From an uncultured virus (IMG/VR IMGVR_UViG_3300042298_003554) (taxonomy: Duplodnaviria; Heunggongvirae; Uroviricota; Caudoviricetes): a stretch of 64,000 nt of DNA. A model generated the notes under the pieces. It saw only the letters and a program-made list of their open reading frames with translations, was not told the DNA's origin and did not search any database. The stretch is taken from the IMG/VR virus record IMGVR_UViG_3300042298_003554. One strand, given 5' to 3'. The position numbers and the translations under genes are program-made. Shown here one piece after another: positions 1,889 to 63,972 of this stretch (within the stretch, counting starts at the first letter, position 1; each line of letters begins with the position of its first letter).

Positions 1889-1906
1889 ACAGTATAATTC
1901 CGGAGG
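1847..1906 (+). promoter_or_regulatory. Predicted RNA hairpin sequestering the Shine-Dalgarno of the homing endonuclease gene
   Basis: TCCGGAATT (1849-1857) is the reverse complement of AATTCCGGA (1896-1904). Inner pairings: TATACA 1861-1866/TGTATA 1882-1887 and CATT 1869-1872/AATG 1877-1880. The 3' arm covers GGAGG (1902-1906), just upstream of ATG 1911. Confidence 0.6.
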
Positions 1907-1910
1907 CAAT

Positions 1911-4459: not shown

Positions 4460-4464
4460 TATTT

Positions 4465-6512: not shown

Positions 6513-6535
6513 CAATACTCAAAGAGGAATGAATA

Positions 6536-6570
6536 TAGAATATTGGGGGTGAAACATCCCCCTTATTCTA
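6536..6570 (+). terminator. Intergenic stem-loop (terminator-like or processing site) after ssb
   Basis: TAGAATA-TT-GGGGGTG-AAA-CATCCCC-CT-TATTCTA inverted repeat; the U-tract is weak. Confidence 0.55.
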
Positions 6571-6577
6571 TTATATA

Positions 6578-10045: not shown

Positions 10046-10442
10046 TATAACCATAGTGATAGATCCATCAAAAGAAGACGGTTCTCATGTACATATAAAT
10101 AATCTAAATTCTATAGTTAATCATTCTTGTGATTCTATAACAATAGATATATTAGAATATCTTAAAGAAAGCGATCATCAGGTTATTATTAGGATTCTTT
10201 TGGAGAAACTTAGACAGAGTGGTAGGTTGAGTATCATTATAAGCAATGCCAAAAGCATAGCTCAACAATACATAAAGAGCGCTATATCCAATGATAGTTT
10301 TCTCAATTTCTTTGCAAATAAGCAGAGCCTTATTTCAGTCGAATCATTATATACTTTTATGGATTTTGCATTATTTGATATGATCGATTTAGATATTACC
10401 AACACTTTTATAACCATCGTTTTCGAGAGAAAAGAACTATGA
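10035..10442 (+). CDS. Hypothetical protein, truncated class I methyltransferase-like
   Basis: SCDSITIDILEYL...LLEKLRQSGRLSI resembles SAM-MTase motifs IV-VI; no glycine-rich SAM-binding motif I. Confidence 0.4.
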   Translation: MKRNITIVIDPSKEDGSHVHINNLNSIVNHSCDSITIDILEYLKESDHQVIIRILLEKLRQSGRLSIIISNAKSIAQQYIKSAISNDSFLNFFANKQSLISVESLYTFMDFALFDMIDLDITNTFITIVFERKEL

Positions 10443-22627: not shown

Positions 22628-22630
22628 AAA

Positions 22631-47800: not shown

Positions 47801-48435
47801 CTTAACGACGAAAAAGAGTCATCTGATAACGAAGCAAAATTTAATTGATCATTTTGATTAAGAGAGTACCATGCTTGTCCATCGCAAACCAGCCTGGTTG
47901 ATGTGCTTGTTGACTCAAAAATTAAACCATCACAATCTCTAATTATTATGTTGTGAGCAGAAGACAGTGCTTTGATATCTATAACAATATTTCTAGCTTT
48001 TTTAGGGTCTGGTAATACACAATCAATATTTTTATCATTGTTATCTACCAAATAAATGCTTGTTACATTATCGATAGTAAAATGATCGTTCTTAACAATA
48101 ACATTATTAAAACTACTATTAAAATTATTATTATTTACAAAAAGATAAAACTCATTTTCATTACCAATAAAATTAACTGGTTTGTTATTATTTGATGAAT
48201 TTGTAACCTCTATTCTTTTAACTACTAATAAACCATCACTATACTGTATTTCGCCAACTCCGGTTTCCCATTTGTATCCATCTTTAATATTACGAATTAA
48301 GTATGGAATAAAATATCCAATAGTATCTTGTTCTAATGCTTTATAGCCATTAATAGCATTATGCTGAATAAAAGTGTTATTACTAACAGAACAAAGAAAT
48401 CCTATGTTATTAAATATTTTAGTAATTTTATTCAT
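44866..48435 (-). CDS. Tail fibre-like protein with a circularly permuted FGE-sulfatase (CLec-fold) domain
   Basis: Fibre N-terminal motif WETGVGE...R..V..SSNNNKPVNF. FGE motifs YGTYDQNGNVAEW, GGSY and VGFRVAS come before IGRYEVTNKQYVQFLN, PVNYVNY and LPSFNQWHKAAY. Confidence 0.75.
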   Translation of the reverse strand: MNKITKIFNNIGFLCSVSNNTFIQHNAINGYKALEQDTIGYFIPYLIRNIKDGYKWETGVGEIQYSDGLLVVKRIEVTNSSNNNKPVNFIGNENEFYLFVNNNNFNSSFNNVIVKNDHFTIDNVTSIYLVDNNDKNIDCVLPDPKKARNIVIDIKALSSAHNIIIRDCDGLIFESTSTSTRLVCDGQAWYSLNQNDQLNFASLSDDSFSSLSNPGGAAYSFQYNDGSNGLLGSELYWSSGNTNKLLLGSSSESLAHTVIPTSGSANTIFNQDLQPSDFIVYGSGQPYRNLFFSYDGRVGINIPSGSRPQTIFHVVNYSCSEILRLENRTTCQPAKLTVYHKPSSLSNGGVCSILNLAGRDVNNNQKDYATIYSIASDTTNGNGGLVLTVSSGSSQQPLVSGSLDSINLGYSNNKRININNNGNINISGDNIDIRSSTLSTIGTSNTYITLNNTNRSISLDYNSLLLGTGSITSNGTLSANNISSNTITLPNIATSSLLTISNNKTIVPINGITVNSGNNGLIFNNISGNKFLTTDSTNNLVGLYDLDDYFLTEKDITWNKYTPKIASVCLKQVILSEDTPIEEFSVGDQVEIITSNSSIYRNITSLVTNEAFITEIILDQNVSTNEINNITIASVTKGGYLTIQKFSSESSSDSTSNILSVRPKTETVFNTAQKDIDFTVYGADIRPALKVHASVGSITTVSGTYYNFATKDDNIKPIVINTVGSGLTNNFSTANYNYSLTNNLFSGILSSVGTNGKSSYYGTYDQNGNVAEWIESDITDGIVTLEYAAGGSYRTPVTGSVSPDADSIYLRGIQQFPIISGYDYVGFRVASISNLVDNANISNSSSLNLSFVNIINENNIADTKDLYLQFSNNTYQNIIIPNLGVVDKNYRIGRYEVTNKQYVQFLNSVATTVGDPVTTGLYNPNMTNAQNGGILRSTNGLVFEYSIKPNMEDKPVNYVNYINSLQFINWLHNDAPEEVSSNDANSIINDGAYTILLAGSTYYITANNNRKYFLPSFNQWHKAAYFEYQESIFVSGSPAITMGTFEPYVVATELLSENSTDPPKQVLANLTVSGWLVVDKIFVRDGTVRSSLKDIGFVPDLTADTIEQQAAGVIPPLSTDVGGINSDTFWNNNTSSSWGGGGGIYGETNPPPIVNADGTENEADCEDENLIATNNIPHWCRDDGRPGLF

Positions 48436-48441
48436 ATTAGC

Positions 48442-51400
48442 CTATGCAATATCATTAGGGTTAATATCTATATCAAAGTTGATAGTATTATTTTCTGGAT
48501 TTTTAGCTTTTAGATCTTGGAAAGCGGATCTTATAGCAGATATGGCTATTCCTGCCATGTCTGGTCGTAATTGATTCAAAACTGTGTCTCCGTTGATAGT
48601 AACAACAACATCGTGTTTTCCTGTGATAGTAATTTGTGGAGGTATATAAATATTACTAAGTATATTGGCGATATTATTTAATCTATTAACAAAATTATCA
48701 ATACTAGAAATATCACCGCCACTGTTAGATACACCACCAGAGCTATTGTTTGGTTGTTTTAGTGCCGAAACAGCTTTATTGAAAGCTTCTGTTATACTAC
48801 TAGAAACAGATACCATAATATTGTTCATAAAAGAGGTAAAATCGAAACCGGATCCGGCCGGTGTTCCTCCTCCGCCTTCTCTGTATAGTGGCAAATAGCC
48901 ACCACCGCTAAGATAGTTTACAATACCTCCTCTGCTATAATTCCCATTATTAATAGCTTCAAGGACTGGTCTGTATTTTTGAGTCGAAGCTCTGTTAATA
49001 ACAAATTCACCAGGAGTTAGCATGGCCGGAACAGTATCTGTTCCTTTTGGTCTAAAATTAATAAAGCTCCCATTGCTAGCGTATACTATACCTCCACGAG
49101 CAAGAGCTTGTTGGTTTTCTGGTTTTTGTTCTTCTGTTTTAGACTCTTGTATTCTAACTGTTATTAAATCTTTCATTCTGTTAGTGTCTGGTAATTCGCC
49201 ATATTTATCTGCGGTTAATAACTTATGATGCTGAATATAATTATCTTTATTCCCAATAGTTGTAACAGGATCTTCTAAATTCCTATCACCACCAGCTGTA
49301 GTATTTGGTTTGGGGGCATTACCATTGAGAGCATCTAAACTGCCTTGTAACATATCATTATTTAATCCAGCATTTAATAAAGTGTCTTGCGCCGTGTACC
49401 ATGGTTTAAGACCCTCTGCTGCTGCTGCAAATTCTGATAAATTATTTTTAGTAAAATAATCGGATAAAACCTTAAGATAGCTCTGTCGTTTTTCGCTATT
49501 TTCAAATAAATTTTCTGGAGCTAATCCTATACGTTCAACATCCTGAATAGTTTTAGGATTTTTTATATTATCAGATTTTATTTCTGTTTTATTACCATCT
49601 TTATCAACAGTATACAGCTTTGTTTTTGATGCTTCCAGATCTAAACTTTTTAATGAATCTTCTGGTATTTCTCCACTGGCATTTTTACTAATAGCTATAG
49701 CCTTTTCTCTTGCTATAATTTGTTTAATTCCATCTGCATCAACTGTTCCCTTTTCAACATCAACACCAAAAGTTTTCAAATATGCCACAGTAGCCGGTAT
49801 TCTGCTTTCTGCATCTTTACCTATACCTCCTGGTTGATATAATTCGCTAAATAGTGCTCTCCAAGCGTTAATTTCTGCCCATTGAGGAGATTTATTATCT
49901 ATTTTTTTGAGATAATTATTTAAATATCCAGCAACACCTCCAACGTCTTCTATCTTTGTTATACTAGGAACTCCGATTCCGTAGGCGCTCAATGTAGTAG
50001 ATGCAATTCTCTGTATTTCTTGTGCTAATTTTGTTCTTGTTGCTGTTGTAAATGCGCTTTCTGCTGTTGATAATTTTTTGAATCTATCTCCTGTGACTTT
50101 TGAGGCTCTTTCTTTAGTCAACTCCATTTCTTTAGCTTTTATTCTTTCGTCTCTTGCTTTTTGGTATTCTGTAGCATCAATAGTCATACTTTCTAAAATA
50201 GGATTCGTGCCATCACTAGACGGTATAATATATGGTTTAATATCTTCTGGTAAATCTTTAATTACTCTAAATTCGCTTGGATCAACACTGCTGATACCTC
50301 CTATATATTGTCCATTCAATTTTAAGCTTGATAAAGATCCAAATTCTTCATTAACTGGAGGCATCTCTCCTGTATCAGTATTCCATGATGGTAATCTAGC
50401 ACCTAAATATTCATTAAGACTTGTTCCAGCATACAGTATCGGCTTCTCTGTATTGTATAATGGATTTAATTTTGGATCTCCAGCTTTTGGTGGAATATAA
50501 GTATATTCATAAGGGCTACCATAGTTTCGCGATGTTGTATTTAATAGGTTACCTGTTATAGTTTTTGCTGGAATAAAAAATCGACCACCAGCAGATCCAA
50601 TGGGTGTTTCTGTTACCTTAAATAAAGCATCTCCAGCTTCTGTGTTAAATTCTTTTTGTGCTAATTTTAAATTACTCACATCTAATTTTGTATCATTTGT
50701 AATCCATGGAAATTGACGTTTGTTGTCAGTGTTTGGTTGATTATTGACTATAGGGATAATACTTATTGTATCATTCCAATTGGACATGGCTGTGTTATCT
50801 TCTACTGCTTTCTGATAATTCGGATCTGATTGAATGGTATTCCATTTTTCTTCTGCCATATTATATAATGTTATTGGCTTCTTAACAAAATCCGGATCGC
50901 CGATAGACGTATGAAATATTCTATTCTTATACAAAGCATCTAATGAGGCTAGTGTTTCTTTGTTATAAATAGAGGCATCGGACTCTACGGTAGAAGTATC
51001 AACTTTCTCACCGGCTCCTTCTCCAGGATCTAGTATCTTATCATCAAAAAGACTAAGAGCCTTAAGAGCCTGTCGAGTTTTTTGTATAACTTGTATCGTA
51101 TTATTGACTAAATCAACTTTATTATGAGAGTCTAAATTATCTTGTTGTAAATCTTTACCAGCTAATACTCGAGGAGGAGTATTTACATACGCTGCAAACT
51201 TTGCTGGTGAATCCGCTAATGTAAATGGCGACACTCCCTCAAAGCCAACACCTCCTTGTTTAAGGATACGTGGTATTTCATCAAATATACCCCAATAGGA
51301 TTTCTCATTGTCTTGTATAAGATCTTCAACTACCTTTAGATAGGAGTATCCCTTATAGTCTCCGTCGCGACGAGTACGTCTTTTTGGTTTTCTTGAAAAA

Positions 51401-54400
51401 TTAGGAGAAATATTTGGCAATGGCTCCGTATTGATCTCTTTAATAAATGTTTCTATTTTGGTATTTCCGGATGGTCCTTCCATAAGTTTAGTATATAATG
51501 ATTGATAGCCCAAGATCAGGTCTGTAAACTCACCATCTTTTCCATTTTTATATATGTCAGATTTGGTTAATTGTTTTTCTGATCCGATAATACTATCAAT
51601 ATCTTGTATTCCCCAAAATAAACTTTTTTGATATTTTGGTAATTCAGCTTTTTTAGTTCCAGTGATTGAACCATAATTATTATATAATGTACCAATTTTT
51701 TCTCCAAGATATATTCTTTCAAAAGATTCACCAATGCCGGACTTGCCTCTATTTCCAACAGCAATAAAATTATCTGTTTGAATTGTTCCTAATTTTTTAA
51801 AGTCTTTATCACCATATTGTTCTAAAATAGGTAGTTTTAATTTAGTAGCCTGTTCTGCATTTTTAGCTGTTTTTTGTTTTTCTGTTGATTGGCTAACGGC
51901 TTCTTGTAATTTAGGCGCATCGTCATCTTTTCCGGTTCCGGCGGTTGCTACTCCTCCAGCTAAAACATATCCTCCCTCATTGTAGTATCTTACTTTTCCA
52001 CCATTACTATATTTTTTACTATTAATATTTTGTAATAATGGAAGATTAGCTTTTGTTGCTGCTCGATTAACCACAAACTCTCCGGGAGTCAACATTGCAG
52101 GAACAGTATCAGTTCCTTTTGGAGCAAAATCAATAGCTCTGCCCATTGATGCGTATATTACGCCTCCTTTGCGTTTGTTTTGAGCAGGAATAGGGTCTTT
52201 TCCTTCTTCGTCTCTTTTACCTACGATCTCGACCAATTTTTGTATATTGTCTCTTATATCATTAAATACTTGTTGATCGAAAGTTAAAGGAACACTACTA
52301 ATTGCTGTTGCTAGTTTTGTTGCTGCTATTTCTGCGGTATTCTCGCTCATCATCCTTTGTAGTTCACCTAATATATCATTAGCTTGTGTTTGTTTAGCCA
52401 AACTTTCTCTATAAACACTAATAGCTTCTGCCATTTGAGGATCCCCTTCGGGATTTCTTAAACTATCCAAAACTGATTGAAAAGTACTATCTATACCAAC
52501 ACCGCTTTCTTTAAGCATACTTTCTAACACATTAGCTTTTAATTCATTTTGTTGCTGTCCATCTCCTAATAGTGGAGCAAGCATATTAAAAGCCTGTAAA
52601 CTTTCACCTCTTTGTTCTGCTGTGCTACCAACATTTAATCCGCCTCTCATATTATTATTTAATCGTCCTATTGAAGCATTTAATCTGGCTAATTCTTCCG
52701 GATTAGAAGTTACCATTTTTTCTATAAGATTAGCTCCGGCTTGTCTTCTAGCTTGTACCTCTTGAATTTTAGCTAAAGCTGCTTGTGCTAAATCGGTACT
52801 GTCCGCCATTTGTTTTAATGCATCAATATTTTCTCTAAGAGCCACGTTAGTGTTTCTTAGTCGATTTTGCATAACGGCGAATTCGTCTTTTGCGGCCGGA
52901 CCTCTATTGCCAGCATTATCAGCAGCTGTTTGTAATGTTCGTCTTTGAGCTTCTAAATTCACAACGTTTCTACCAATATCACCAGGATTTGTTAATCCTC
53001 CTGTCATAGATCTTATTGGCGCTTCTGTTACATTTCTTGTTTCTGTTAAAGATACTGTTTGCCCTAATGTTTTAGCTAGTTCCATAGCTCCTTTAGCTTG
53101 AACCTCGCTAGCTTTTCTCATCCTATTATTAGCTTCTATCTGAAAATCAACCATTTGATTCATAGCTTGAGCATACTCATTAAGATTCTTTTGATAAAAT
53201 TCCATAGCTTTAACAGCTAATTCTTGTGCTCTTTGTGCTGAGCTAATAGCTTTTGCAAAAGCGGGAACTTCTTCTGTTATCTGATCAAAGTTTAATCTTG
53301 TATCTTCTCCGCCTCTTTCGCTTCTTATCTTTTCAAAAGCTAATTTAGTTTGTCCTGCTAACTTATCTGCTATATTAGGAGGTAATCCTAAATCTTTTAA
53401 TTGAGCATCTAGAGCATTTCTAATATTTGACGCTATTCCTTCTGTGCTACCTGTTGGATTAGCCTGAACAGAACGATTGATAGTACTCATTACCGTACTT
53501 TCTAACTTATCTCCAAGTCCCAATAGTGGCCTAACAAGATCAGCTTGAGATCCAAAAAATCCTGCTGCTTGATCAAAAGCTGCTCCTTGCTCTTGTCCTG
53601 AATATGCTCTTGGATTTTGTAACACATTAATACTGTCGAGCATAACATCTCCAGCCTTAGCATTTCCGCTTAAAGCTGCTGCTGATAATTCTGCTGAACG
53701 AGAAAGTTTACTTAATTCAAAGTCTGTTTTATTTATGGCCTGTTCCATCCCATTAAACATTCTTTCCAAACTTGTTGCAAAATTATTGGTTTGTCTACCT
53801 AGTTTCTCAAACTCAATTTGTTTCATACTATTTTTCATATTAACACTAGCAACTCTGTTAGCTTCGGATGTTGTTATTTCTTTGATAATAGCGCTTTTGC
53901 GTTGTTCTGATATGTTTCTATCATTCTCTATCAACATAATTTGTTCATTGATTTTCGGATTCATTCTAGCAAGAACTTCAGCTGATTGATTACCAGCAGC
54001 ATTTAATTCAGCAAGAATAGTATCCATGTCCATACCGGACCGAAGTTTATTTTCGAACTGTTTTAATATATTTTGGCCTTGTGGCTGAACCTTTTGAGCT
54101 GTTTCAACGGCCTTTTCTGGTGCAATTCTGCCTATTGCCGCTTGTTGAGCATTATTAGAAAATACAGATGAGATATAGCTTCCAATACCTTCTTTTTCCA
54201 ATATCATACTTCTACCAGCAGCCTGCGAACCACCATCAAGATCTAATAGATTAGCCCACATTGCTTTTGGAACTTTTAAATCAGTTTCAAGATTTTTCAT
54301 CAACTGTTTGGATCCGTAACTTAATTCACTATCAATTTTACTAAGAAAATCTATATTAGTAGTATCTTTTTCAAATTGTGCAAATAGGTCGCTTACTCTA

Positions 54401-57400
54401 CTTAAACTTTCGTCTACTCTTTTTTGACTTGTTTGTAAATCAAACTCTCTAGCAGCATTATATGCTTCTTTAAAACCAGCTGCTATGGCAACTGCCCCAC
54501 CCGCTAACGATGCTCCGACTAAAGCCATAGGACTTGCTATAAAACCCATTATCTTAGGAGCTAAACTAGTGGCTACTTTACCTATACCGCCTCCCATTCC
54601 TTGCATAGTATCTAAAACAAATTTTATACCTCCTGGTAATTGACTTAGAGAAGCTCCTAATGTACTGACGGTACTAGCTACGCTACTTATACCAGTACTA
54701 AGAACAGCAGTATCTTTATTTTCCGACCCTCCTAATGATTTGATAGTAGACGATATGACAGATCCTATTCCACCAATAGCTAAACTAGTTTTAGCCAATG
54801 TAGACGCCATTTTTTGAGCAGCTGCTACGTTCTTGTCGTAAAGATTACTTGCTGCTAATTCGGCAGAACTTGCTAGTTTTTGCAAAGCTTCCTCAGGAAT
54901 ACCCAAACTAACGCTAAGTTTTTGGGTTGCTGATTGTAAAGCTGTTGCATCTGTTGATGATTGTTTGAATGCTTCTTGTAATTCTTGCGAATTATTAATA
55001 ATATCAACAAATGTTTTATCGGTATCCCCCATACTTGCTGCTAAATCATCAATTATAGTTGTTATTTGAGACGATTCAAGATTTGTTCCAAGATCAGCTA
55101 ATTGTTTAGCTAATTGTTCTTTAGCTTTAGTAATTTTATCTTCATCTCCACTGTTAATATCTCCTCGTAAACTAACAGCAGTTTCATTAAACTTACTAAT
55201 TTTACCAGGAGCTGATTTTTGTAGATCTTTAGCAAGATTCAAAATATTTTGTTTAAGATTACTTTGATACTGTGATAGTGTTTGTCCGTTTTGTTCTGCT
55301 TTGAGTCTCATGAGTTCTAATGCGTCAGCCGCTCTTGTAGCAGCTGCTGCTTTGGCTTTGTCTGCCTCGGCGGCAAGATCATTGTTTTTTGATACTTGTG
55401 CAATAATACTATTTAAATCAGTACCTTCTCCTAAGCCCGGAACATTAAATGCTTGTAGTCCTCTGGAACTAATTGTTTCATTAAGTGCTTGTTGTCTTGC
55501 TTCTGGTGCTGACGGAGCTTCTGGCCCTAAAGCATTGCTAAAATCTTGTTCCATAATATCAACTGATCTAGCATCAATTTCTTGTTGTAGTCCGGATATA
55601 TATTCTGCTGTAGACTGATTAGCTTCTTTAGCTTTTTGTGCTAATAATTCTTGTAATATTGCTTGTTGTTGAGCAGCTTTATTAGCCTGTATGGTAGCAT
55701 CAGCAGCCTGAAATTTTGATCTGGCGTCATCCTGAATAGCCTGTTTATCTTCTTTAGACGATGCTCCTCTATATACTGGATCGTATTCGGATTTAATATT
55801 TTGTTTAGTTTCTATTCTTTGAGCAATTGCTTCGTTTTCTGCTGCTGCTAGTTTTTGCTCGGCAGATTTTGGTACGGGAGGCGGCGTTCTTGGTAAAGAA
55901 GTTTTGGGGGTTGTTGAAGTGTCGTCGGGATCGGGCGGGATTTGAGGACTCGGTGGAGTAACCGCATATGTTGTGGCTGATTTTGGCGGCTCTATAGGAG
56001 CAGAATTTTGGTATGCGTCTATTCCTTTATTTAAAGCATCAATATAATTCGTCATAATAGCATCAATTTCTGCCGCGCTTTTTCCTTGTTTAGCCAAAGA
56101 CACGGCTACTGCACGATAGCTTTGCATCATCAAACTAGCATCTTCTACTGTTCCATTGATAGTACTAAAATATCTATCTAAAGCGTTTGCTAAAACCGGA
56201 GCCACTTTGTCTATCTCTTGCCAGGCCGAATAACCATTACTTATGATTTGTTCTGTGGTTCTAAAACTGTCTGCTAATAATATTGCGCTTGTCTTTAGAA
56301 ATCCAAGATCGGGCACTGGCGCCTGAATACCAGTTGCATGTTTTCTATAAGAAACCTTGTCACCATCTTTGAATTTTCTTACTCCAACAGCACCACCACT
56401 ATTTAAACCTAATGCTTTAGTTGCCTTTTCTCTTATAACAAAACTACCTACAGGCAGATTTGTTGGTATACTATCACTGGTTCCGTTTCCGGGGCCCTTA
56501 AATACGCTAATACCTCCTTCACTGAACTCTGTCATACCATTTTTATCAGCTTGATTCATACGTTCTAATTTTCCATAGCCAATTTGTTTAGCAAGTTTGG
56601 GTGGCACAAAAGCCTCTCCGTTACTGACTAGAGCAGGAACTGATCCTCCGCCTTTAAGTTTGCTAATTAATCCACCAACTGATAGTTTTTGTCTACTTAT
56701 TCCGGCGCCTCCCAATAAGTCATCCAGAGTACTATCCAAAATTCCACTTAAATTTTCATCCAACAATGGTAATTTTTGTACTAGTGTTGTTAAAAATTCT
56801 TCTTTACCATTATCTTCATATTTATCTATAACATCTTGACTTATTTTACCTCTTAATAAAATATCATTAACTCTAGGATTCAGTGGCTTGAAAGCTTTAG
56901 CATTTGTGGTGGACTGTGTTTCGGCCCAAGTTTTTCTTAATTCTGGAACATATTCCGGATCACTATTAACATATTTTTCAAATGACTCTTTTTTAGCGGA
57001 GCCTATCATTAAACTGCTTAGTCCACTAAGTTTATAACTTCTTCCATAAGCAACATCAGCACTATTATATCCAGTATTTCCCACCAAAGCATCAAAAGCA
57101 TCGGCCACATCATCATTATTTCCACTAAATAAACTAGCAACTTTGGCCTTGTATGCTTCAAATGATTGAGCATTTTTAGTTCTAAGACTATTAAAAAGTT
57201 GATGAGTTAATTCATGATATAAAATACTATAATCTTGACGTTGACTTGTATTAAACGGATTAGTCGCTATACCAACGCTACCACGACCACTCTGGTTTGC
57301 AGATTGTAATCTAGATTCTTTTGCAGCTTTAATAGCCACATTATTTTTATCAATAAGAGATCTTTGTTGTTTTTGTAAATCTTCTAATTCTGCTCTTAGT

Positions 57401-60400
57401 TTTTCTGTTAGAGCCACATCATAACCAAAACTACCATCTTCATATGTTGTAACAGAAGTTTTGATTGTTTTTAATATTTGTTTCTTTTTTTCTTCTATTA
57501 GTTTAGTATATCCAAATAAATCTTGTTTATCTTGTTCAGTATAACCATATGGTGTCAGGTCCACTCCTTGTAGTCCTCTGGTTCCTGGGCCAGAAGGATC
57601 CTTGTTAAATAGTGCTGTAGCAGGATAATTAACACCAAAATCTAACTGAGTTGGTATAGCAGACAAGAAGTCTGTGGGTGGTAATCCTATGACTCGTGCA
57701 AATTGTCCCATTCTTTCAAAAACTGTATTTCTACTTATTTTATCCTTAAACGAATTTATGAATAGTTCTCTACTAAAAGGAGATTCGTATCCTTTTTGTA
57801 CAGCCTCTTCGTCTACAATCATTCTTTCATTACCAGGATACGTTGAAAAAACCTTCTCCATTTGTTCTTGTTCTAATAATTTTTCCATTTCCCGAACATA
57901 AGCATTACTTATTCTTTTGGGAAATTTAAATGATCCAGAGCCAATTGTTGCTGCTCCTCCTTTAGCATAGGCTTGTGGATTTTCTGTAAAGTATCTACTA
58001 AATTCTTCTCTGGCTTTTGAAAAACTGTCTCCATCCAAAGTTCTTTTTACTTCTGTTTCAATATTCGGAGGTAATCCAAAAAGTTGAGCACCTCTACCTA
58101 GTCCTTGTGGAAAATCAATCGCCCTATTTCTTTGTAAAGCATCAACATTTATATTATAGCCCAATAATTGTGATAGTGCCGCTTCTAACATACCTCCTTC
58201 AATATTAGATTGTCCAAATTTTTCTTCTGCTGGTCCTTTAAGTTCTGGAACTTCACCATAACGAAAAGTGCTTTTACCAGCAGCCATTGTTGCTCTAATA
58301 TTTTCTTCACTATCATCGATTAATTTTTCGGCTGCTGCAACATTAGCAGCTTTAGCTTTTGCTATATTTGTTCCTAATCCTTGACTAACTCCAGTAACAT
58401 CTTGTTCTAAATAGGGTAATCCAAATCTATTAAGAGTAGATGCTATAATATCTGCTGTACTTTGAGGACGAGCCGTTAAGATGCGACTATACATCCTAAC
58501 ATATCCAGGATTTTTTTGTTCTATACTAGCCAATCTTTTAGCTAGTGAGGTTGGTCTAGCTTGGGCTAGACTTTCCATAACTTTTTTTCTATCCGAATAG
58601 GCTGGTAAATCTTCTTTACCATTTTCATCTAGCATTTTTGTTCCAAGAGCTAATGTTTCATCAAAATCTATTGCTAATGGTTGAATTGGCCCCTGAATAT
58701 TTCTATTACCTAATCCGCCTAATGCTGCCGTATCTTGAATATCTTCAGCAAATTTTTGACGAGTAGCTCTATTAGCCTCTTGCATAGCTTCTATTTGTGG
58801 TAAAAAGCTAGATTGAAATCCTCTAACATAACCATAAATTTCTCTACCATCTTCCAACTTCCAGTCTGAAAAATCTTTATTATAATCTAATGGAAATAAT
58901 CCGGCAATTGCAACTTTTCTCATGGCTGCTTCTTTTGCTTCTCTAGCAGCATCTGTTTTTCCTGTCTTAGCTAGCGCCCTATTTATAAATTTAATAGCTT
59001 TTTCTATGTTTTTACCGGCTCTAATATTACTAGCATTCAATATAGAGCTAATCTCTCTTTCTCCAGCTCCTAATCCTAGTATTTTTTTAACTCCGCTAGC
59101 ATCTCCAAAACTGGATAATTGTTCTAAAATTACAGTTTCAATAGATTTTTTTTCTTTAGCAGCTATGTTTTCTACTGTTCCGCCAACCGCAAACCTTCGT
59201 CTTGCTGCTTTTTGATCACCATAAACCATGCGTTTACCAACCGGACCACGCGAAGCTTGTGTTGCTAATTTTCCTCTTTTTATAAACTCTCTAATAGTTT
59301 CTTCATCTTTGAGTTCATCAAATCTCATACTCTGAAGACCGCCGATAGCATCATATCTAGCAACTGGAAATCCATTTAAAACACCAACAGAAGATGATTT
59401 TTCTGAAAATAGTTTTTTAAATAATGGCAACTGTGATCTAGATGATTCTAAATTAGCAATAATTTTATCAGCACGAGCCTCATCAATTATCATAGAATTA
59501 GAAATTGATTTTGATATAAGTTGTTCATCGCTCCCATAAAATTCGCCCAAAAGAGTTCTTATAGTTGATAATTTAGATTGTAGCGCTTCTCCTCCGCCAG
59601 CAAATTTTTTAATTAATCCACCAGAATTTAATAGTTCTTTATATGCTCCGGATCTAGACTGTGTTCTAGTCCTCTGTAGTCCTGTTGCACCGCTTACATA
59701 TGACGATCCAAATTTTGATGGTTTGAATAATAGATCGATATAACTAGATTCCTCTAAATTATCTTGAGTTATAATCCTCTTTAAGCTGTCTAGCTCACTA
59801 TCAATATCAAAACTAGAAATACTTGGAAATTCTGATGGCGGTGGATTATTTTTATTTGTATATTGTTTTGTTGGTAAAGATTTTATAGCAGTAACGAGTT
59901 GTTGTCTTGTATCTTTTTTATCATTTTTAGGCAATCTACCATATTGCCCAACAAACAAAGAATCTTCTGATGTTGCTATAAAATTAGCTAAATCATTTTG
60001 ACTAACTAAATTAGGATTATTGGCTCTAAGAGCTTGATTCCAATTTGATGGTAAATTTAATATAACTCTATCTTTAATTCTAAGTTGCATTTTTTTAATC
60101 AAATTATTAAAATCAAAATCTCCTGATTCTAATTGTTGTTTTGTTACTCCGGCATTGTCGTATGCAGAAGCGAAAAACTCTTTACTTCTATAATTTCTTG
60201 CATAATTTTGTAGATTTTTTTTACTTATTTGTATATCAGATCCTATATGAGATTTATTAAGAGTATTATTTTGCGGAACGATTTTTCTAACTTGATCTCC
60301 TTTAGCATATCTATTCATTCTTACCAAATTACCTCTTCCATACTTATTAACAGCACGATTGCTCATTACTACTTCGCCCGGCTCTAACAATGCTGGAACT

Positions 60401-62682
60401 TTGTCTCCTCTTCCGTTACCAGGAACACTTCCTCCTTTAGAGAAACCCAAAATACGACCACCGCCACTAGCAGTAGTTGGTCCACCGCCTCCGCCGAAAT
60501 CTTTTCTATCTAAAGTAGCATCTAAATTAACCAAAGCAGCATAAACATTTTCTAGAGAACTATTATTACTAGATAAAGTATTCGTATTATTTTGTAGTGT
60601 TGTATTATAGGTAGATAAACTATTACTAATAGCATTAAAATTAGTATTAAAAGTATTGATACCAGCAGACAATTCCTGTATAGCGGTAGTATCTATTCCG
60701 GAAGATTTGTTTTTTTCATTTTGTATTTGTTGAATTCTTATTTTTTTTTCTGTACTATTTAGTGTTTTATCAGTTCTAATATTTCTAATTTGTTGGGCTT
60801 GAATTTTTCTTTGTGTAGGATCCTGACCAGAATCTGTCGATGTTAACTTTTGATTATTAATAGTATCATTTAAAGTTGATATAGACGATATCAAATTAGT
60901 AACTAATGATGGATCTATAACTTGTTCTTTTTCTTTTGAACTTAGATCAATTAAGGATTGTATTGTTGTAGTAAGAGACGTAAGCTTATCAGAAATACCA
61001 TTCAAAGCTTCTGTATTCTTTTCAATATCTCTACTAGTTTGTTCTGTTTTAGCTCCAACTAAACTACTACCCAAATTACTGCCTATAGATCTTGCTATTC
61101 CGGGTTGTTCTTCTCCCTCTTGTCCTTTTGGTACTTTCTTTAATCCTCCTATAAAACCACCAGCAAATTGAGTAATACCTCGTAAGCTAGCCCCTGCTCC
61201 TAATATTGCTAATGCTGGTAGTACTCCTTTTAATGCGCTAGTAATTTTTATTAAACCACTTGCAAATCCTAAAGCGCCTCTAGCAAGAGTTTGGAATGTG
61301 TCGCTTTGACCTAAACTTCTAATTAAACTTAAAAATTCTTCTCTTACTTTAGCTATTTGATTAGCAAGACTTAATTGAGCTTTTAATGCGTCTGCTGCTA
61401 AACTACCCTGACCAGCTTGTGCGACTTTTAGGGCCTCCTGCGCTGTTGCAAACTGTTGAATTAATGGGATAACTTTGCCAATCTGTCTGAATCCACCAAG
61501 CTCTTCAACAATTTGACTAAATTTTATATCTCTAGGATCAATTCTATTTAATCCTTCGCTAAGTAATTGTACCGCTTTATATGCTCCAACAAATTTTCCT
61601 TCGGCATCTGTTAGTGTTACTCCAAAGTCTCTTAATGCATCTATTGTTCCTTGTCTTTGAATACGAGTAAAAATAGTTCTTAAACCGGTAGCAATAGTTT
61701 CTGCGCTTTCGCGTGTTGTAGCACGAACACTTGTAAAAACAGCAATAAACTCATTTAGAGCATCTGTTCCTTCGCTTACTCCTTTGCTGGCATTTGCAAA
61801 CACACCACCAGTACGTTGAATAGCAGCAATAATATCACTAGACTCAACAGCAAATGCTGCCGCAACACTATTAACACTACCCAATGCTTTTTCTAGTTCT
61901 TTGGCACTAATACCAAACTGTCTCATTAATGCAATAGAACCTTCTACTGTTTGATTAATATCGTCAAAACTTGGAGCAAGGCTACTACGGGCTAATGCCT
62001 CTAATGCTGCTCTAGTTTCTGTTGCACTTAAACCAGCCTGTGCTAAGGTGCTAGAAACCTGAACTAAACTATCAGAGCTAACACCAAGATTGATAGATAG
62101 TCTAGTAATTTCATTTTGTAGATCTTGTAATCCTTCGGCATTTTTGCCAGTTACTTGTTGTAATTTTACTAATTCTTTATCAAACTCTATAAAGCTTTTT
62201 AAACCATTATTAATTGCTCTATTAAGACTAAAAAAGACTCCTGTTACAGCACTAAATGCTGCGAAACGACGAACGGCCAAGGCGCTTTGACGACCAAACT
62301 CTTCCATCTCTGTTCTTGCTACGCTAACATTTTTAGCTGTTTTAGTAAGAGATGATCCAACATTATCTGCGCTTTTTGTTGTTTTGTCTAAATTAGATGA
62401 TAATTTATTAGAAGAACCACTAATAGATGTGACACTTTGACCAAAACTCTTTATGGCAGAAGAGGCTGCTCTGGCATTGGTTGACACATTAGCTAGATTG
62501 GCATTTAATTCTTGTAACGACTTACTTAACCTCGAAGTATTATTTATGCTTGCTGGATCAATATTAAATTTTATATCACCAGTAATAGTTCCTAGTTGTT
62601 TTTTAACATCCGAAACTATCTGTCTAACATTTGATGGTCCACGCAAATTTAATTGTGCGGTTAGATTAAAGGCTTGTGCCAT
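48442..62682 (-). CDS. Tail tape measure protein (TP901-family core), 4746 aa, with embedded enzyme-like domains
   Basis: N-terminal tape-measure core (FDKELVKLQQVTG...LAQAGLS...ESAETIATGLRTIFTRI), long Ala/Gln-rich helical tracts, GTDTVPAMLTPGEFV modules; lies directly downstream of a chaperone-like gene. Confidence 0.9.
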   Translation of the reverse strand: MAQAFNLTAQLNLRGPSNVRQIVSDVKKQLGTITGDIKFNIDPASINNTSRLSKSLQELNANLANVSTNARAASSAIKSFGQSVTSISGSSNKLSSNLDKTTKSADNVGSSLTKTAKNVSVARTEMEEFGRQSALAVRRFAAFSAVTGVFFSLNRAINNGLKSFIEFDKELVKLQQVTGKNAEGLQDLQNEITRLSINLGVSSDSLVQVSSTLAQAGLSATETRAALEALARSSLAPSFDDINQTVEGSIALMRQFGISAKELEKALGSVNSVAAAFAVESSDIIAAIQRTGGVFANASKGVSEGTDALNEFIAVFTSVRATTRESAETIATGLRTIFTRIQRQGTIDALRDFGVTLTDAEGKFVGAYKAVQLLSEGLNRIDPRDIKFSQIVEELGGFRQIGKVIPLIQQFATAQEALKVAQAGQGSLAADALKAQLSLANQIAKVREEFLSLIRSLGQSDTFQTLARGALGFASGLIKITSALKGVLPALAILGAGASLRGITQFAGGFIGGLKKVPKGQEGEEQPGIARSIGSNLGSSLVGAKTEQTSRDIEKNTEALNGISDKLTSLTTTIQSLIDLSSKEKEQVIDPSLVTNLISSISTLNDTINNQKLTSTDSGQDPTQRKIQAQQIRNIRTDKTLNSTEKKIRIQQIQNEKNKSSGIDTTAIQELSAGINTFNTNFNAISNSLSTYNTTLQNNTNTLSSNNSSLENVYAALVNLDATLDRKDFGGGGGPTTASGGGRILGFSKGGSVPGNGRGDKVPALLEPGEVVMSNRAVNKYGRGNLVRMNRYAKGDQVRKIVPQNNTLNKSHIGSDIQISKKNLQNYARNYRSKEFFASAYDNAGVTKQQLESGDFDFNNLIKKMQLRIKDRVILNLPSNWNQALRANNPNLVSQNDLANFIATSEDSLFVGQYGRLPKNDKKDTRQQLVTAIKSLPTKQYTNKNNPPPSEFPSISSFDIDSELDSLKRIITQDNLEESSYIDLLFKPSKFGSSYVSGATGLQRTRTQSRSGAYKELLNSGGLIKKFAGGGEALQSKLSTIRTLLGEFYGSDEQLISKSISNSMIIDEARADKIIANLESSRSQLPLFKKLFSEKSSSVGVLNGFPVARYDAIGGLQSMRFDELKDEETIREFIKRGKLATQASRGPVGKRMVYGDQKAARRRFAVGGTVENIAAKEKKSIETVILEQLSSFGDASGVKKILGLGAGEREISSILNASNIRAGKNIEKAIKFINRALAKTGKTDAAREAKEAAMRKVAIAGLFPLDYNKDFSDWKLEDGREIYGYVRGFQSSFLPQIEAMQEANRATRQKFAEDIQDTAALGGLGNRNIQGPIQPLAIDFDETLALGTKMLDENGKEDLPAYSDRKKVMESLAQARPTSLAKRLASIEQKNPGYVRMYSRILTARPQSTADIIASTLNRFGLPYLEQDVTGVSQGLGTNIAKAKAANVAAAEKLIDDSEENIRATMAAGKSTFRYGEVPELKGPAEEKFGQSNIEGGMLEAALSQLLGYNINVDALQRNRAIDFPQGLGRGAQLFGLPPNIETEVKRTLDGDSFSKAREEFSRYFTENPQAYAKGGAATIGSGSFKFPKRISNAYVREMEKLLEQEQMEKVFSTYPGNERMIVDEEAVQKGYESPFSRELFINSFKDKISRNTVFERMGQFARVIGLPPTDFLSAIPTQLDFGVNYPATALFNKDPSGPGTRGLQGVDLTPYGYTEQDKQDLFGYTKLIEEKKKQILKTIKTSVTTYEDGSFGYDVALTEKLRAELEDLQKQQRSLIDKNNVAIKAAKESRLQSANQSGRGSVGIATNPFNTSQRQDYSILYHELTHQLFNSLRTKNAQSFEAYKAKVASLFSGNNDDVADAFDALVGNTGYNSADVAYGRSYKLSGLSSLMIGSAKKESFEKYVNSDPEYVPELRKTWAETQSTTNAKAFKPLNPRVNDILLRGKISQDVIDKYEDNGKEEFLTTLVQKLPLLDENLSGILDSTLDDLLGGAGISRQKLSVGGLISKLKGGGSVPALVSNGEAFVPPKLAKQIGYGKLERMNQADKNGMTEFSEGGISVFKGPGNGTSDSIPTNLPVGSFVIREKATKALGLNSGGAVGVRKFKDGDKVSYRKHATGIQAPVPDLGFLKTSAILLADSFRTTEQIISNGYSAWQEIDKVAPVLANALDRYFSTINGTVEDASLMMQSYRAVAVSLAKQGKSAAEIDAIMTNYIDALNKGIDAYQNSAPIEPPKSATTYAVTPPSPQIPPDPDDTSTTPKTSLPRTPPPVPKSAEQKLAAAENEAIAQRIETKQNIKSEYDPVYRGASSKEDKQAIQDDARSKFQAADATIQANKAAQQQAILQELLAQKAKEANQSTAEYISGLQQEIDARSVDIMEQDFSNALGPEAPSAPEARQQALNETISSRGLQAFNVPGLGEGTDLNSIIAQVSKNNDLAAEADKAKAAAATRAADALELMRLKAEQNGQTLSQYQSNLKQNILNLAKDLQKSAPGKISKFNETAVSLRGDINSGDEDKITKAKEQLAKQLADLGTNLESSQITTIIDDLAASMGDTDKTFVDIINNSQELQEAFKQSSTDATALQSATQKLSVSLGIPEEALQKLASSAELAASNLYDKNVAAAQKMASTLAKTSLAIGGIGSVISSTIKSLGGSENKDTAVLSTGISSVASTVSTLGASLSQLPGGIKFVLDTMQGMGGGIGKVATSLAPKIMGFIASPMALVGASLAGGAVAIAAGFKEAYNAAREFDLQTSQKRVDESLSRVSDLFAQFEKDTTNIDFLSKIDSELSYGSKQLMKNLETDLKVPKAMWANLLDLDGGSQAAGRSMILEKEGIGSYISSVFSNNAQQAAIGRIAPEKAVETAQKVQPQGQNILKQFENKLRSGMDMDTILAELNAAGNQSAEVLARMNPKINEQIMLIENDRNISEQRKSAIIKEITTSEANRVASVNMKNSMKQIEFEKLGRQTNNFATSLERMFNGMEQAINKTDFELSKLSRSAELSAAALSGNAKAGDVMLDSINVLQNPRAYSGQEQGAAFDQAAGFFGSQADLVRPLLGLGDKLESTVMSTINRSVQANPTGSTEGIASNIRNALDAQLKDLGLPPNIADKLAGQTKLAFEKIRSERGGEDTRLNFDQITEEVPAFAKAISSAQRAQELAVKAMEFYQKNLNEYAQAMNQMVDFQIEANNRMRKASEVQAKGAMELAKTLGQTVSLTETRNVTEAPIRSMTGGLTNPGDIGRNVVNLEAQRRTLQTAADNAGNRGPAAKDEFAVMQNRLRNTNVALRENIDALKQMADSTDLAQAALAKIQEVQARRQAGANLIEKMVTSNPEELARLNASIGRLNNNMRGGLNVGSTAEQRGESLQAFNMLAPLLGDGQQQNELKANVLESMLKESGVGIDSTFQSVLDSLRNPEGDPQMAEAISVYRESLAKQTQANDILGELQRMMSENTAEIAATKLATAISSVPLTFDQQVFNDIRDNIQKLVEIVGKRDEEGKDPIPAQNKRKGGVIYASMGRAIDFAPKGTDTVPAMLTPGEFVVNRAATKANLPLLQNINSKKYSNGGKVRYYNEGGYVLAGGVATAGTGKDDDAPKLQEAVSQSTEKQKTAKNAEQATKLKLPILEQYGDKDFKKLGTIQTDNFIAVGNRGKSGIGESFERIYLGEKIGTLYNNYGSITGTKKAELPKYQKSLFWGIQDIDSIIGSEKQLTKSDIYKNGKDGEFTDLILGYQSLYTKLMEGPSGNTKIETFIKEINTEPLPNISPNFSRKPKRRTRRDGDYKGYSYLKVVEDLIQDNEKSYWGIFDEIPRILKQGGVGFEGVSPFTLADSPAKFAAYVNTPPRVLAGKDLQQDNLDSHNKVDLVNNTIQVIQKTRQALKALSLFDDKILDPGEGAGEKVDTSTVESDASIYNKETLASLDALYKNRIFHTSIGDPDFVKKPITLYNMAEEKWNTIQSDPNYQKAVEDNTAMSNWNDTISIIPIVNNQPNTDNKRQFPWITNDTKLDVSNLKLAQKEFNTEAGDALFKVTETPIGSAGGRFFIPAKTITGNLLNTTSRNYGSPYEYTYIPPKAGDPKLNPLYNTEKPILYAGTSLNEYLGARLPSWNTDTGEMPPVNEEFGSLSSLKLNGQYIGGISSVDPSEFRVIKDLPEDIKPYIIPSSDGTNPILESMTIDATEYQKARDERIKAKEMELTKERASKVTGDRFKKLSTAESAFTTATRTKLAQEIQRIASTTLSAYGIGVPSITKIEDVGGVAGYLNNYLKKIDNKSPQWAEINAWRALFSELYQPGGIGKDAESRIPATVAYLKTFGVDVEKGTVDADGIKQIIAREKAIAISKNASGEIPEDSLKSLDLEASKTKLYTVDKDGNKTEIKSDNIKNPKTIQDVERIGLAPENLFENSEKRQSYLKVLSDYFTKNNLSEFAAAAEGLKPWYTAQDTLLNAGLNNDMLQGSLDALNGNAPKPNTTAGGDRNLEDPVTTIGNKDNYIQHHKLLTADKYGELPDTNRMKDLITVRIQESKTEEQKPENQQALARGGIVYASNGSFINFRPKGTDTVPAMLTPGEFVINRASTQKYRPVLEAINNGNYSRGGIVNYLSGGGYLPLYREGGGGTPAGSGFDFTSFMNNIMVSVSSSITEAFNKAVSALKQPNNSSGGVSNSGGDISSIDNFVNRLNNIANILSNIYIPPQITITGKHDVVVTINGDTVLNQLRPDMAGIAISAIRSAFQDLKAKNPENNTINFDIDINPNDIA

Positions 62683-62779: not shown

Positions 62780-63688
62780 TTAATTTGTTGAAACTGTTTG
62801 TTCTGTTGGTGCAGAAACTTGGGGTTGGGTATCAACCGCTTGGGAAACTGCTTCAACAGATGGTTCAACTTTATCATCTTTGGGTTGTTCCTCATCTAAA
62901 ATAATTGGATTTCCATTTTCATCAAGGAATGGTTGACTATCAACAAGATACTCTCCATCTTTGTCTACTTTGTTACCGAACTTATCAACAAAGTTACCCT
63001 CTTCATCAATAAATCTACCACTCTCATCTATTAGTCTGCCTTCTCTATCTATTAGCCTACCCTTTTTGTCTACCAAGCGTAATTTCTCATCAATAAATTT
63101 AAATTTCTTTAAAAATTTATTTTCTGGTAAATTAGTTTCATAGTCATTATCTAAGCCATATAACATGTTAGCCAAATTTTGAGCACCCATTATAGCAACC
63201 TTCTCGGTTGAGCTATTTAGATACTCTTCCATATTTTTATATACTGGTTGTTTAGTATCATTATACACCAAACAAACACTTACTAAATAATTAAATCTAC
63301 TATTATCAGCTTGACCTTCTGCGCTATGATTATCCAAGCTGGTACGAACACTAATAAGATCTCGTATTTCATCACGAATACTCTTCATTTTAATAGCTAG
63401 GTCTTTAGCTTCATTTAAACTAAAACCGCCTTTAGCCAAGCGTTTTTCGCCCTCTAGAAGCTCTCGTTGAAGCTCTGTAAATTTAGCTTGTTTTTCGTCA
63501 TTCCATAGTCCCTGATCTTCTAATAGATCATCGAGTTTAGCTCTTACAACACTTTTACTTTTAATAGCATCTGTAAAAGCCTGATTATAAATTTTTTGAG
63601 CTTCTCTCTGGTTATCTAATGTTGGGCTTCGAACCAAATATTCTTTTTCAACACCGTCTACTTCTAATTTAAATGTTTTTGTCTTCAT
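62780..63688 (-). CDS. Putative tail assembly chaperone with D-x-x-G 7-residue repeats
   Basis: Immediately upstream of the tape measure gene; coiled-coil N-half, then VDKKGRLIDREGRLIDESGRFIDEEGNFVDKFGNKVDKDG. Confidence 0.55.
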   Translation of the reverse strand: MKTKTFKLEVDGVEKEYLVRSPTLDNQREAQKIYNQAFTDAIKSKSVVRAKLDDLLEDQGLWNDEKQAKFTELQRELLEGEKRLAKGGFSLNEAKDLAIKMKSIRDEIRDLISVRTSLDNHSAEGQADNSRFNYLVSVCLVYNDTKQPVYKNMEEYLNSSTEKVAIMGAQNLANMLYGLDNDYETNLPENKFLKKFKFIDEKLRLVDKKGRLIDREGRLIDESGRFIDEEGNFVDKFGNKVDKDGEYLVDSQPFLDENGNPIILDEEQPKDDKVEPSVEAVSQAVDTQPQVSAPTEQTVSTN

Positions 63689-63972
63689 ACATCCTTCTCC
63701 TGTTTAAGATTAAATTTATAGGTATACTTACTATTTGTTTTATTTTGTGATAAAAATTTTTTTAAATCATCTAGTGCTGCTCGTGCTTGTTTATTGCCAT
63801 TATTTAGTATGCTATTTCTGGTAAATTCCCAAGCGTCCCATACCGGACTATTGTCTGGTTCATTTTCCCAAACATGACCGAAATTATCTTCGAATCTTGC
63901 TAATGCTCCAATCATAGTGGTTTGAAATCTTTTATATATATTATCTAGTAATTGTTGTTCATCATGAGTCAT
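63685..63972 (-). CDS. Hypothetical protein
   Basis: 95-aa ORF with AGGA upstream, overlapping the next start (ATGA). Confidence 0.7.
   Translation of the reverse strand: MTHDEQQLLDNIYKRFQTTMIGALARFEDNFGHVWENEPDNSPVWDAWEFTRNSILNNGNKQARAALDDLKKFLSQNKTNSKYTYKFNLKQEKDV

Follow-up and report, generated by a model that had tools for sequence, protein, structure and literature searches.

Tape measure proteins (TMPs) that carry one embedded enzyme are already known from the phages TM4, T5 and P23-45, and processing of such proteins has been described in T5 and lambda. In lambda, a cut within the Gly-rich C-terminal part of gpH yields gpH* and a ~14-kDa piece, gpHC, neither the site nor the catalyst of this cut being known (PMC12617516). 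The T5 protein pb2 is cut between a hydrophobic stretch and its muralytic domain, and the resulting pb2C stays in the tail (bioRxiv 10.1101/2022.09.20.507954). Deletion of the insert from TM4 gp17 shortens the tail predictably (PMC1796659), so that the inserts of this protein count as ruler at assembly, and P23-45 combines a TMP of 5002 aa with an extremely long tail (PMC10770324).

Here we describe a giant TMP gene in a 64,000-nucleotide stretch of DNA (the window) from an uncultured Caudoviricetes virus (IMG/VR record IMGVR_UViG_3300042298_003554). The gene occupies positions 48442..62682 on the minus strand, as do all features located within it below, is open throughout and encodes 4746 aa. 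A first-pass annotation, made from the letters alone, had read the product as a TMP built like a polyprotein, with cargo domains bracketed by recurring [FYL]-x-x-GG motifs that mark cleavage, junction or recombination points. We consider it highly probable that this protein joins a constant scaffold to exchangeable cassettes whose joints are defined by the motif, a grading that does not extend to the molecular role of the joint.

We take the open reading frame (ORF) to be a real gene because a 4741-aa protein 99% identical to its product, together with DNA-identical stretches, occurs on independent metagenome contigs of 70-131 kb, and because its N-terminus matches TP901-type TMP families. PF10145 covers aa 190-384 (E 6e-22, 78.9 bits against a cut-off of 33.2), TIGR01760 matches the N-terminus (E 1e-23, 83.6 bits against a cut-off of 28.8), and the first ~500 residues also match several PHROG tape measure families. 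The protein is a genuine giant TMP of what is probably a very long-tailed phage. No cultured close relative of it turned up, its similarity to Bacillus phages being confined to the N-terminal domain (24% identity).

The scaffold has three parts. The first is the N-terminal TP901-type domain (aa 1-520; 61123..62682), which contains hydrophobic segments at aa 133-153 and 470-504. The second combines a hydrophobic, Gly/Ala-rich, membrane-like segment picked out by a hydropathy scan (aa 2703-2738; 54469..54576) with a helical core rich in helix-forming residues (aa 2750-3500; 52183..54435). The third is the last copy of a junction module, described below, followed by a C-terminal domain of ~140 aa (aa 4607-4746; 48445..48864). 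This last domain is presumed to be the end that binds the tail tip, by analogy with the lambda, T5 and Douge structures.

A recurring motif at domain borders

Every motif listed in the first-pass annotation was confirmed at its position: FSKGG at 60444, YAKGD at 60309, LNSGG at 59631, FAGGG at 59604, FAVGG at 59193 and YAKGG at 57969; LSVGG at 56685, LKGGG at 56658, FSEGG at 56526, LNSGG at 56406 and FKDGD at 56373; and YSNGG at 52011, YNEGG at 51984, LARGG at 49104, YSRGG at 48939, LSGGG at 48912 and YREGG at 48885. In total the TMP holds 20 [FYL]xxGG motifs where 4.4 +/- 2.0 are expected, and none of 2000 composition-preserving shuffles reached 20. Similarly, F, Y or L stands at position -3 of 20 of its 54 GG dipeptides, against 8 expected. 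At 0.421 motifs per 100 aa, the density exceeds that elsewhere in the 100-kb genome by a factor of 5.6; there, 57 other ORFs of at least 150 aa contain 19 motifs in 25,457 aa (0.075 per 100 aa). These figures show the motif to be commoner than chance would yield in a protein of this composition, and they speak against an artefact in which low-complexity, Gly-rich interdomain linkers mimic the motif. Such an artefact has in its favour that the TMP is 7.9% Gly and contains several Gly runs; given in addition the specific flanking positions, the 9-aa period and the conservation of the surrounding module in 13,184 clusters, we consider it negligible.

The motifs also mark domain junctions, as had been proposed. 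Across 118 relatives, 48.3% of 1030 similarity borders fall within 15 aa of a motif, compared with 11.5 +/- 5.8% in a circular-shift control (maximum 33%), in which none of 5000 shifts reached the observed value. Four of the 20 matches (aa 729, 2634, 3807 and 4282) lie away from cassette borders.

The motif as the edge of a conserved module

The first-pass annotation had treated the motif as a short free element. It is real and enriched, but self-comparison of the TMP showed it to be the edge unit (aromatic/Leu-x-x-G-G-x-V, with a 9-residue period) of a longer module of ~63 residues, present in five copies that a profile places at aa 741-799, 1999-2052, 2047-2112, 3505-3566 and 4529-4590. Copy 1 (aa 741-799; 60286..60462; 65.8 bits with the module HMM) is flanked by FSKGG and YAKGD. 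Copies 2 and 3 stand in tandem (aa 1999-2112; 56347..56688; 56.8 and 62.1 bits) with the joints LSVGG/LKGGG, FSEGG and LNSGG/FKDGD. Copy 4 (aa 3505-3571; 51970..52170; 87.0 bits) ends in YSNGG/YNEGG, and copy 5 (aa 4529-4606; 48865..49098; 85.3 bits) contains LARGG, YSRGG, LSGGG and YREGG. The TMP also carries solo or double edge units outside these copies, such as the double joint LNSGG-x4-FAGGG (aa 1018-1031; 59590..59631). Motifs outside the modules keep the 9-residue period in the form GG-x-V-x-x-aromatic-x-x-GG, and they frequently stand in pairs with a spacing of 9 residues, for example at aa 1018/1027, 2000/2009 and 3558/3567.

The conserved elements of the module are a core, D-[TS]-V-P-A-[ML]-L-x-P-G-E-F-V, an L-x-x-x-N element and a closing [YF]-x-x-G-G-x-V. 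Over 1237 unique copies, conservation amounts to 99% at G30, 93% at P24, 91% at L27, 89% at both E31 and N51, and 88% at D21. We counted 1270 copies in 234 family proteins, in which 62% of 4186 motifs fall within the 9.4% of residues that are module; the distance from the last module to the C-terminus has a median of 153 aa in these proteins (interquartile range 137-171) and is 156 aa here. The module was found in none of the 57 other ORFs of at least 150 aa of this genome.

Modules 4 and 5 are 63% identical as protein and 64% identical as DNA. Despite this protein identity, they agree at no more than 18 of the 38 third positions in codons for conserved residues, so that selection acts on the module protein and not on its DNA. 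The proposal that the motif is a recombination point holds in so far as segments have been exchanged there, but a purely DNA recombination substrate finds no support.

No Pfam or NCBIfam model matches the module, and the one PHROG that does is without an assigned function. We also considered the module as a self-cleaving Ser-Lys peptidase of the S24/S26 type, as the string D-[ST]-V-P..G-E-F-V resembles the GDSM..GD strand. This candidate was rejected: hhalign did not support the resemblance, since with lambda CI it aligned only 11 residues (P 0.062) that lie off the catalytic Ser, and a conserved Lys is missing from the module.

The module is widespread. Of 1.84 billion cluster representatives, 13,184 matched a profile built from the five copies at E<=1e-3, and 3305 still did so at E<=1e-10; the best 150 matches listed have up to 11 copies per protein and lengths of 935-7872 aa. 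Matches were found in 163 cultured-phage records, 82 of them from Gordonia and 34 from Mycobacterium, the rest including Brevundimonas, Nodularia, Ralstonia and Burkholderia; among the 40 matches listed, the match lies under a TMP gene, except for three labelled endolysin and one in an unannotated record. Gordonia phage Herod, for example, has 3 modules. When PDB sequences were searched with a 91-row module profile, the matches were mycobacteriophage Douge gp16 (E 2e-13, two copies), lambda gpH at 732-785 (E 1.3e-4) and a third TMP (8rk3; E 0.007), and the module family HMM gives gpH 20.9 bits. The Douge, lambda and third-TMP structures leave the module region unresolved and show no more than the extreme C-terminal helices (PMC10721106, PMC13033339, PMC12617516). 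Judged by sequence profile, ordinary TMPs such as lambda gpH carry one module copy near the C-terminus, and in the protein described here module copies and edge units fence every cassette.

Exchange of cassettes among relatives

The first-pass annotation had predicted that, among homologous TMPs, the segments between motifs would vary while the motifs and the helical core stayed conserved. This is what was found, and the N-terminal domain is conserved as well. In a coverage map of 120 giant relatives (2800-7900 aa, on contigs of up to 247 kb; other counts use 118, 231 or 234 proteins), aa 1-510, 2750-3560 and 4500-4600 are matched in more than 100 proteins, with the N-terminal domain matched in 114-117 and the helical core in 102-117. 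The modules at aa 750-800 and 2000-2100 form islands matched in 65-91 relatives, and the segments between these constant parts and islands are matched in just 2 to 88. Not every stretch between motifs is cargo, as had been supposed: aa 2113-3504 are the conserved hydrophobic segment and helical core of the family. Similarity borders pile up at aa 740 (76 borders) and 780-800 (58), at aa 2000 (55) and 2100 (63) and, in the largest pile-up, at aa 3560 (99); borders also occur off motifs, at aa 500-560, 1320, 1480, 2440, 2720, 3880 and 4340.

A flank test and exact junction alignments are stronger evidence than these pile-ups. In the flank test, which asks for a motif inside a 41-aa window at the cassette ends (15% by chance), the cassette at aa 1168-1571, termed S4, has a motif near its end in 46 of 46 relatives and near its start in 30 of 46. 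For the following cassette, S5 (aa 1576-1999), each of the two ends has a motif nearby in 41 of 45 relatives, and the C-terminal domain has one at its start in 43 of 44. At the level of single junctions, a block from aa 1006/1018 to 1998 is 94-95% identical in three relatives (P0004, P0005 and P0014), with flanks that are 50-84% identical or absent; its left edge is the double joint described above, and in a residue-level alignment identity starts exactly there, at aa 1021-1030. Furthermore, relative P0004 contains an additional cassette of 204 aa that separates, exactly at their boundary, two joint units lying side by side in the present protein (aa 2000-2013). This extra cassette (locus L023, 15782-16393, plus strand) shows a GNAT-like K-G-Y-G-x-x-L pattern by eye and has no Pfam or PHROG match.

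Cassette order is likewise variable, within limits set by the core. The cassette S4c precedes S5 in 17 relatives and follows it in 20; pre-core cassettes never lie after the core (47/47 and 33/33 relatives) and post-core cassettes never before it (S8b in 20/20 and S8c in 16/16). The earlier claim of a swappable set is therefore borne out by the coverage map, the 94-95% block, the 204-aa insertion and the S4c/S5 order, which together document cassettes gained, lost, reordered and exchanged at the motif.

Cutting the 234 proteins at modules and motifs gave 2392 segments of at least 80 aa, which fell into 848 clusters. Four clusters occur in at least 100 proteins, namely the N-terminal domain (207), the core (197), an S4-type cassette (120) and the C-terminal domain (107). 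Of the remainder, 20 clusters span 10-49 proteins, 216 span 2-9 and 608 are confined to one, the last figure being an upper estimate because similarity guided the choice of proteins and clusters were drawn strictly. Insertion, deletion, reordering and exchange between phages take place exactly at the joints, and each phage has its own cassette set as a result.

Predicted enzymes among the cassettes

The earlier claim that the segments between motifs are globular and enzyme-like held where it was tested, in S4 and S5. S4 (57970..59181) is bounded by FAVGG (59179-59193) and YAKGG (57955-57969) and comprises a helical/beta N-part, an HAD domain at aa ~1331-1477 and a PD-(D/E)xK-like end at aa ~1487-1567. 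S5 (56686..57957) includes an HExxH motif at aa 1823-1827 (57202-57216) and occurs in 48 of 231 relatives. For modelling, aa 1168-1999 were combined in one alignment with 34 reference sequences of IMG/VR loci (row identity 29-97%); the resulting AF2 model has a mean pLDDT of 80.4, with 278 residues at 90 or above, and these segments are accordingly predicted to be globular.

The best fold match of the HAD domain (model residues 164-310, aa 1331-1477) is the T4 Pnkp 3'-phosphatase 5uj0_B (Z 10.8, rmsd 3.3 A, 126 residues aligned), with further matches to Pnkp1 (4xrp_A, Z 9.7), T4 polynucleotide kinase (1ltq_A, Z 9.5) and then AphA and class C acid phosphatases; in this search of about 48,000 PDB representatives, almost every top row was an HAD enzyme. 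Foldseek agrees (5uj0_A, TMt 0.61), with none of its matches at E<=1e-3, and BFVD returned phage PNKP phosphatase domains from E 9.5e-4. HAD motifs I (DxDxT), II (S/T) and IV (DD) are present in order and conserved, all 25 aligned rows keeping each of D1339, D1341, T1343, T/S1403, D1456 and D1457. A language-model comparison places the domain near phage HAD phosphatases, with weak scores (0.80-0.81), and an hhalign comparison with T5 Dmp lines up motifs I and II (P 0.037). At least one cassette is therefore predicted to be an HAD phosphatase that resembles T4 Pnkp in type and is catalytically intact, a prediction that fold model and residues bear out in part.

In the other two candidate enzymes, conserved residues are seen at the expected type of motif. 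At aa ~1487-1567, D1523 (30/34), E/D1544 (33/34) and K1546 (30/34) are kept, as is E1500, which is lowest at 24/30, and in S5 all 10 rows have H1823, E1824 and H1827. Zincin and nuclease identities for these segments do not stand beyond motif level. Pfam, run on 11 TMP segments and one insert of a relative, gave no match at E<=5, and PHROGs gave nothing informative on the cassette segments. Similarly, the whole TMP matched none of the PDB sequences at E<=1, and the combined S4 and S5 profile none at E<=10; language-model neighbours of S5 are proteins without names. ADP-ribosyltransferase domains that pass the Pfam threshold occur in two relatives, and in one of them (P0093) such a domain spans aa 1303-1513, between motifs at 1294 and 1515.

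Two of the remaining cassettes are rare. S2 (aa 800-1017; 59632..60285) is found in 10 of 231 relatives, in 8 of which a motif lies close to its start and in 6 close to its end. S3 (aa 1030-1163; 59194..59595) occurs in 3 relatives, with a motif at both ends in all three, and the post-core cassettes S8a-c (aa 3576-4525; 49108..51957) are matched in 3, 22 and 20 relatives, always after the core. Neither S2 nor S8a-c has a Pfam or PHROG match, and the searches yielded no assignment for S2, S3, S8 or the further segment S6a.

These data also bear on whether the protein is simply a long ruler. Each residue of a helical TMP accounts for 0.15 nm. By this rule, or by the ratio in Nodularia phage vB_NpeS-2AV2, whose 3404-aa TMP with two modules pairs with a 795-nm tail, 4746 residues would correspond to a tail of roughly 0.7-1.1 micrometres. 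It is conceivable that the module is no more than a periodic contact for the tail tube or a chaperone and that the variable segments are filler with relic enzyme motifs. The 2AV2 pairing, the giant TMP and extremely long tail of P23-45 (PMC10770324), the failure of the module to fold alone in AF2 and the lack of Pfam matches in the cargo segments would all fit such an explanation. Relic motifs, however, would not be expected to keep catalytic residues invariant over rows of 29-97% identity, nor to come with a confident globular model of HAD fold. In addition, the ADP-ribosyltransferase domains of relatives exceed the Pfam threshold, and filler would not need motif-exact cassette exchange. We therefore regard a function as ruler only as unlikely.

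Possible roles of the joint

Our best reading is that the joint is a docking or register element and perhaps also a maturation cut site. It would probably need a TMP oligomer or a tail partner to fold, and it would let folded inserts interrupt the helical ruler. The whole TMP would line the lumen of a ~0.7-1.1 micrometre tail and be expelled ahead of the DNA, in which case the cassettes would reach the host as ready-made proteins.

The first-pass annotation had likened the protein to a polyprotein. If it were a true one, the joints would be maturation cleavage sites, either cleaving themselves inside the assembled tail or serving as substrates of a tail-assembly peptidase, and the lumen would hold separate effectors that are released singly. 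Lambda and T5 offer analogies. The module of gpH lies at 732-785, and from the ~14-kDa size of gpHC the cut in gpH would fall at about aa 710-725, shortly before the module start (~732-733). In T5 pb2, a cut after residue 1127, as the wording of a 92-residue pb2C implies (PMC12617516), would make pb2C start 2 residues before a GG-hydrophobic-hydrophobic-Y element, and the piece is kept in the tail; by HMM, however, pb2 has no module. The recurrence of a short site motif at domain borders is a feature that viral polyproteins have, and one cassette here has an invariant HExxH.

Several of our results point the other way. No peptidase Pfam family was found among 50 other ORFs here, and the HExxH cassette cannot be a general protease because just 48 of 231 relatives have it. 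A conserved module of 63 aa far exceeds what a protease site needs, and it lacks S24-type homology. Natural gene splits at joints were found in none of 22 loci with a TMP ORF ending inside the locus; one downstream ORF with a module was seen, in the anomalous locus L064. Finally, loss of the TM4 insert shortens the tail, so that inserts act as ruler at assembly (PMC1796659). On the strength of these points we put cleavage of the joints during maturation, which is suggested by analogy with lambda gpH and T5 pb2, clearly below an even chance, and we treat the polyprotein as a tentative alternative to the docking or register element.

A bolder version, which we consider improbable, is that the junction module is both catalyst and site of TMP maturation; it would fold only once the TMP oligomer has assembled inside the tail and would then cut the adjacent Gly-Gly joint. 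If true, it would explain the cleavage of lambda gpH to gpH*, and multi-module TMPs would be self-processing polyproteins that load the lumen with phage-specific effectors from hundreds of cassette families.

A number of points weigh against the overall picture of a scaffold that delivers exchangeable enzymes through motif-defined joints. As the modules are conserved islands, homology borders at them are partly automatic; the 234 proteins were picked by similarity to the TMP or by module score and are not an unbiased sample; and the segment clustering, single-linkage at 70% coverage, inflates singletons. The AF2 monomer of the module, from the 91-row alignment, has a pLDDT of 62 and a pTM of 0.31, with one helix confident. 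Among the cassettes only the HAD domain has fold-level support from modelling, and neither its segment nor any of 35 aligned members has a Pfam match. As a sequence-profile match is lacking, we class it by its HAD fold, as a domain that may work like these enzymes, and place it in no named Pfam family. Stand-alone homologues of S4 with 222-707 aa were not found, just 3 partial TMP fragments. The PD-(D/E)xK-like pattern at aa ~1487-1567 was recognised by eye, and both it and the zincin-like HExxH of S5 are assigned on motifs. Lastly, presence in the tail lumen and ejection would apply to this protein by analogy with other TMPs.

Provided that the cassettes are delivered as envisaged, the tail lumen would be a second route for host-takeover or counter-defence proteins, beside the internal proteins of the capsid. 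The joint would also amount to a natural rule for where foreign domains can enter a TMP, and the module offers a concrete candidate location for the lambda gpH cut, a question open for ~50 years (PMC12617516).

Genomic context

The window is part of a 100,279-bp phage contig that encodes, among other proteins, a DNA polymerase, a ribonucleotide reductase, PhoH and a RecA-like protein. The TMP gene recurs in identical form on a 131-kb viral contig, IMGVR_UViG_3300044733_004704 (loci L006, L019 and L101), and the 100-kb contig may for this reason be an incomplete genome. The TMP gene sits in a long same-strand block of large, structural-looking ORFs that include fn3 and BNR domains, and Pfam and PHROG scans of the proteins neighbouring it revealed no recognisable tail family. 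Directly upstream, in the position of a tail-assembly chaperone, are two overlapping ORFs of 95 and 302 aa without a family match (62780-63972, minus strand). Downstream in the same strand block, two more giant ORFs of 2600 and 1958 aa (14825-28507, minus strand) have no Pfam or PHROG match and no junction module.

An FGE-sulfatase (formylglycine-enzyme-like) domain is present in the protein at 44866-48435 (minus strand) and in those at 6323-7900 and 9026-10441 (minus strand) of locus L003, with E-values of 2e-15 to 3e-8; such domains in three large proteins of the structural region are unusual among phage tail-region proteins. The DNA polymerase of the window is in pieces (590-6078, plus strand): ORFs at 590-1888, 2699-3583 and 4465-6078 match one polymerase PHROG in order, and between them lie an HNH/endonuclease ORF (1878-2729) and an ORF resembling an exonuclease subunit (3758-4459). 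The polymerase has thus been split by homing endonuclease insertion. Finally, a cluster of glycosyltransferase, RgpF-like rhamnan-synthesis and sulfotransferase genes (locus L003, 507-7900, minus strand, and window 6578-8230, plus strand) suggests glycan modification of the virion or the host surface.

Comparison with known systems

Lambda gpH shows the same order of parts as the C-terminal portion of the scaffold described here, namely a hydrophobic, Gly-rich segment, then the same module and then a C-terminal piece bound to the tip, and it is cut in the Gly-rich region adjoining the module (PMC12617516). It differs in having one module and no inserts, compared with the five modules and solo joints that fence cassettes in the present TMP. 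TM4 gp17 resembles this protein in that an enzyme domain, the mt3 peptidoglycan hydrolase, is embedded in the TMP and is non-essential and removable (PMC1796659), and we find a module (702-749) and an FAGGG joint directly upstream of this proven peptidoglycan-hydrolase insert. However, gp17 has one module and one insert in 1229 aa, and the accessible part of Piuri and Hatfull 2006 (PMC1796659) describes the insert and not the module.

P23-45 gp96 is likewise a giant TMP, with a working virion RNA polymerase that is injected to act early (PMC10770324). In contrast to the cassette train considered here, its enzyme is single and N-terminal, and gp96 has no module (no HMM match at domain E<=1) and just 5 motif-like strings. 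In T5 pb2, proteolysis frees an enzymatic C-terminal piece that is kept in the tail and released at infection (bioRxiv 10.1101/2022.09.20.507954); unlike the present protein, pb2 shows only the loose GG-hydrophobic-hydrophobic-Y resemblance after its cut.

Polyvalent proteins, known from phages and from conjugative elements (Iyer et al. 2017, PMC5512222), are giant, mosaic, multi-effector polypeptides predicted to be delivered with the DNA and split by built-in zincin peptidases. Like them, the TMP family brings several unrelated effector domains into one giant mosaic, to judge from the HAD fold, the nuclease-like and HExxH motifs, the ADP-ribosyltransferase domains of relatives and the 848 segment clusters. 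Their signature domains (MPTase zincin and LPD) gave no Pfam match on any TMP segment at E<=5, one weak language-model neighbour cluster (score 0.89) has LPD23 in 18% of its members, and PMC5512222 never mentions tape measure proteins. The TMP-related Sle1 effectors that belong to contractile injection systems in actinobacteria (PMC13277306), likened here by their description, also pair a TMP-derived carrier with exchangeable functional domains, but they are the cargo of tail-like particles and not the ruler of a phage. In the literature that we searched, mostly outside subscription journals, we found neither the module nor a motif-delimited cassette system, and what sets the present family apart from these systems is the combination of a constant scaffold, a conserved joint and a repertoire of inserts that is very large, turns over fast and extends over thousands of uncultured phages.

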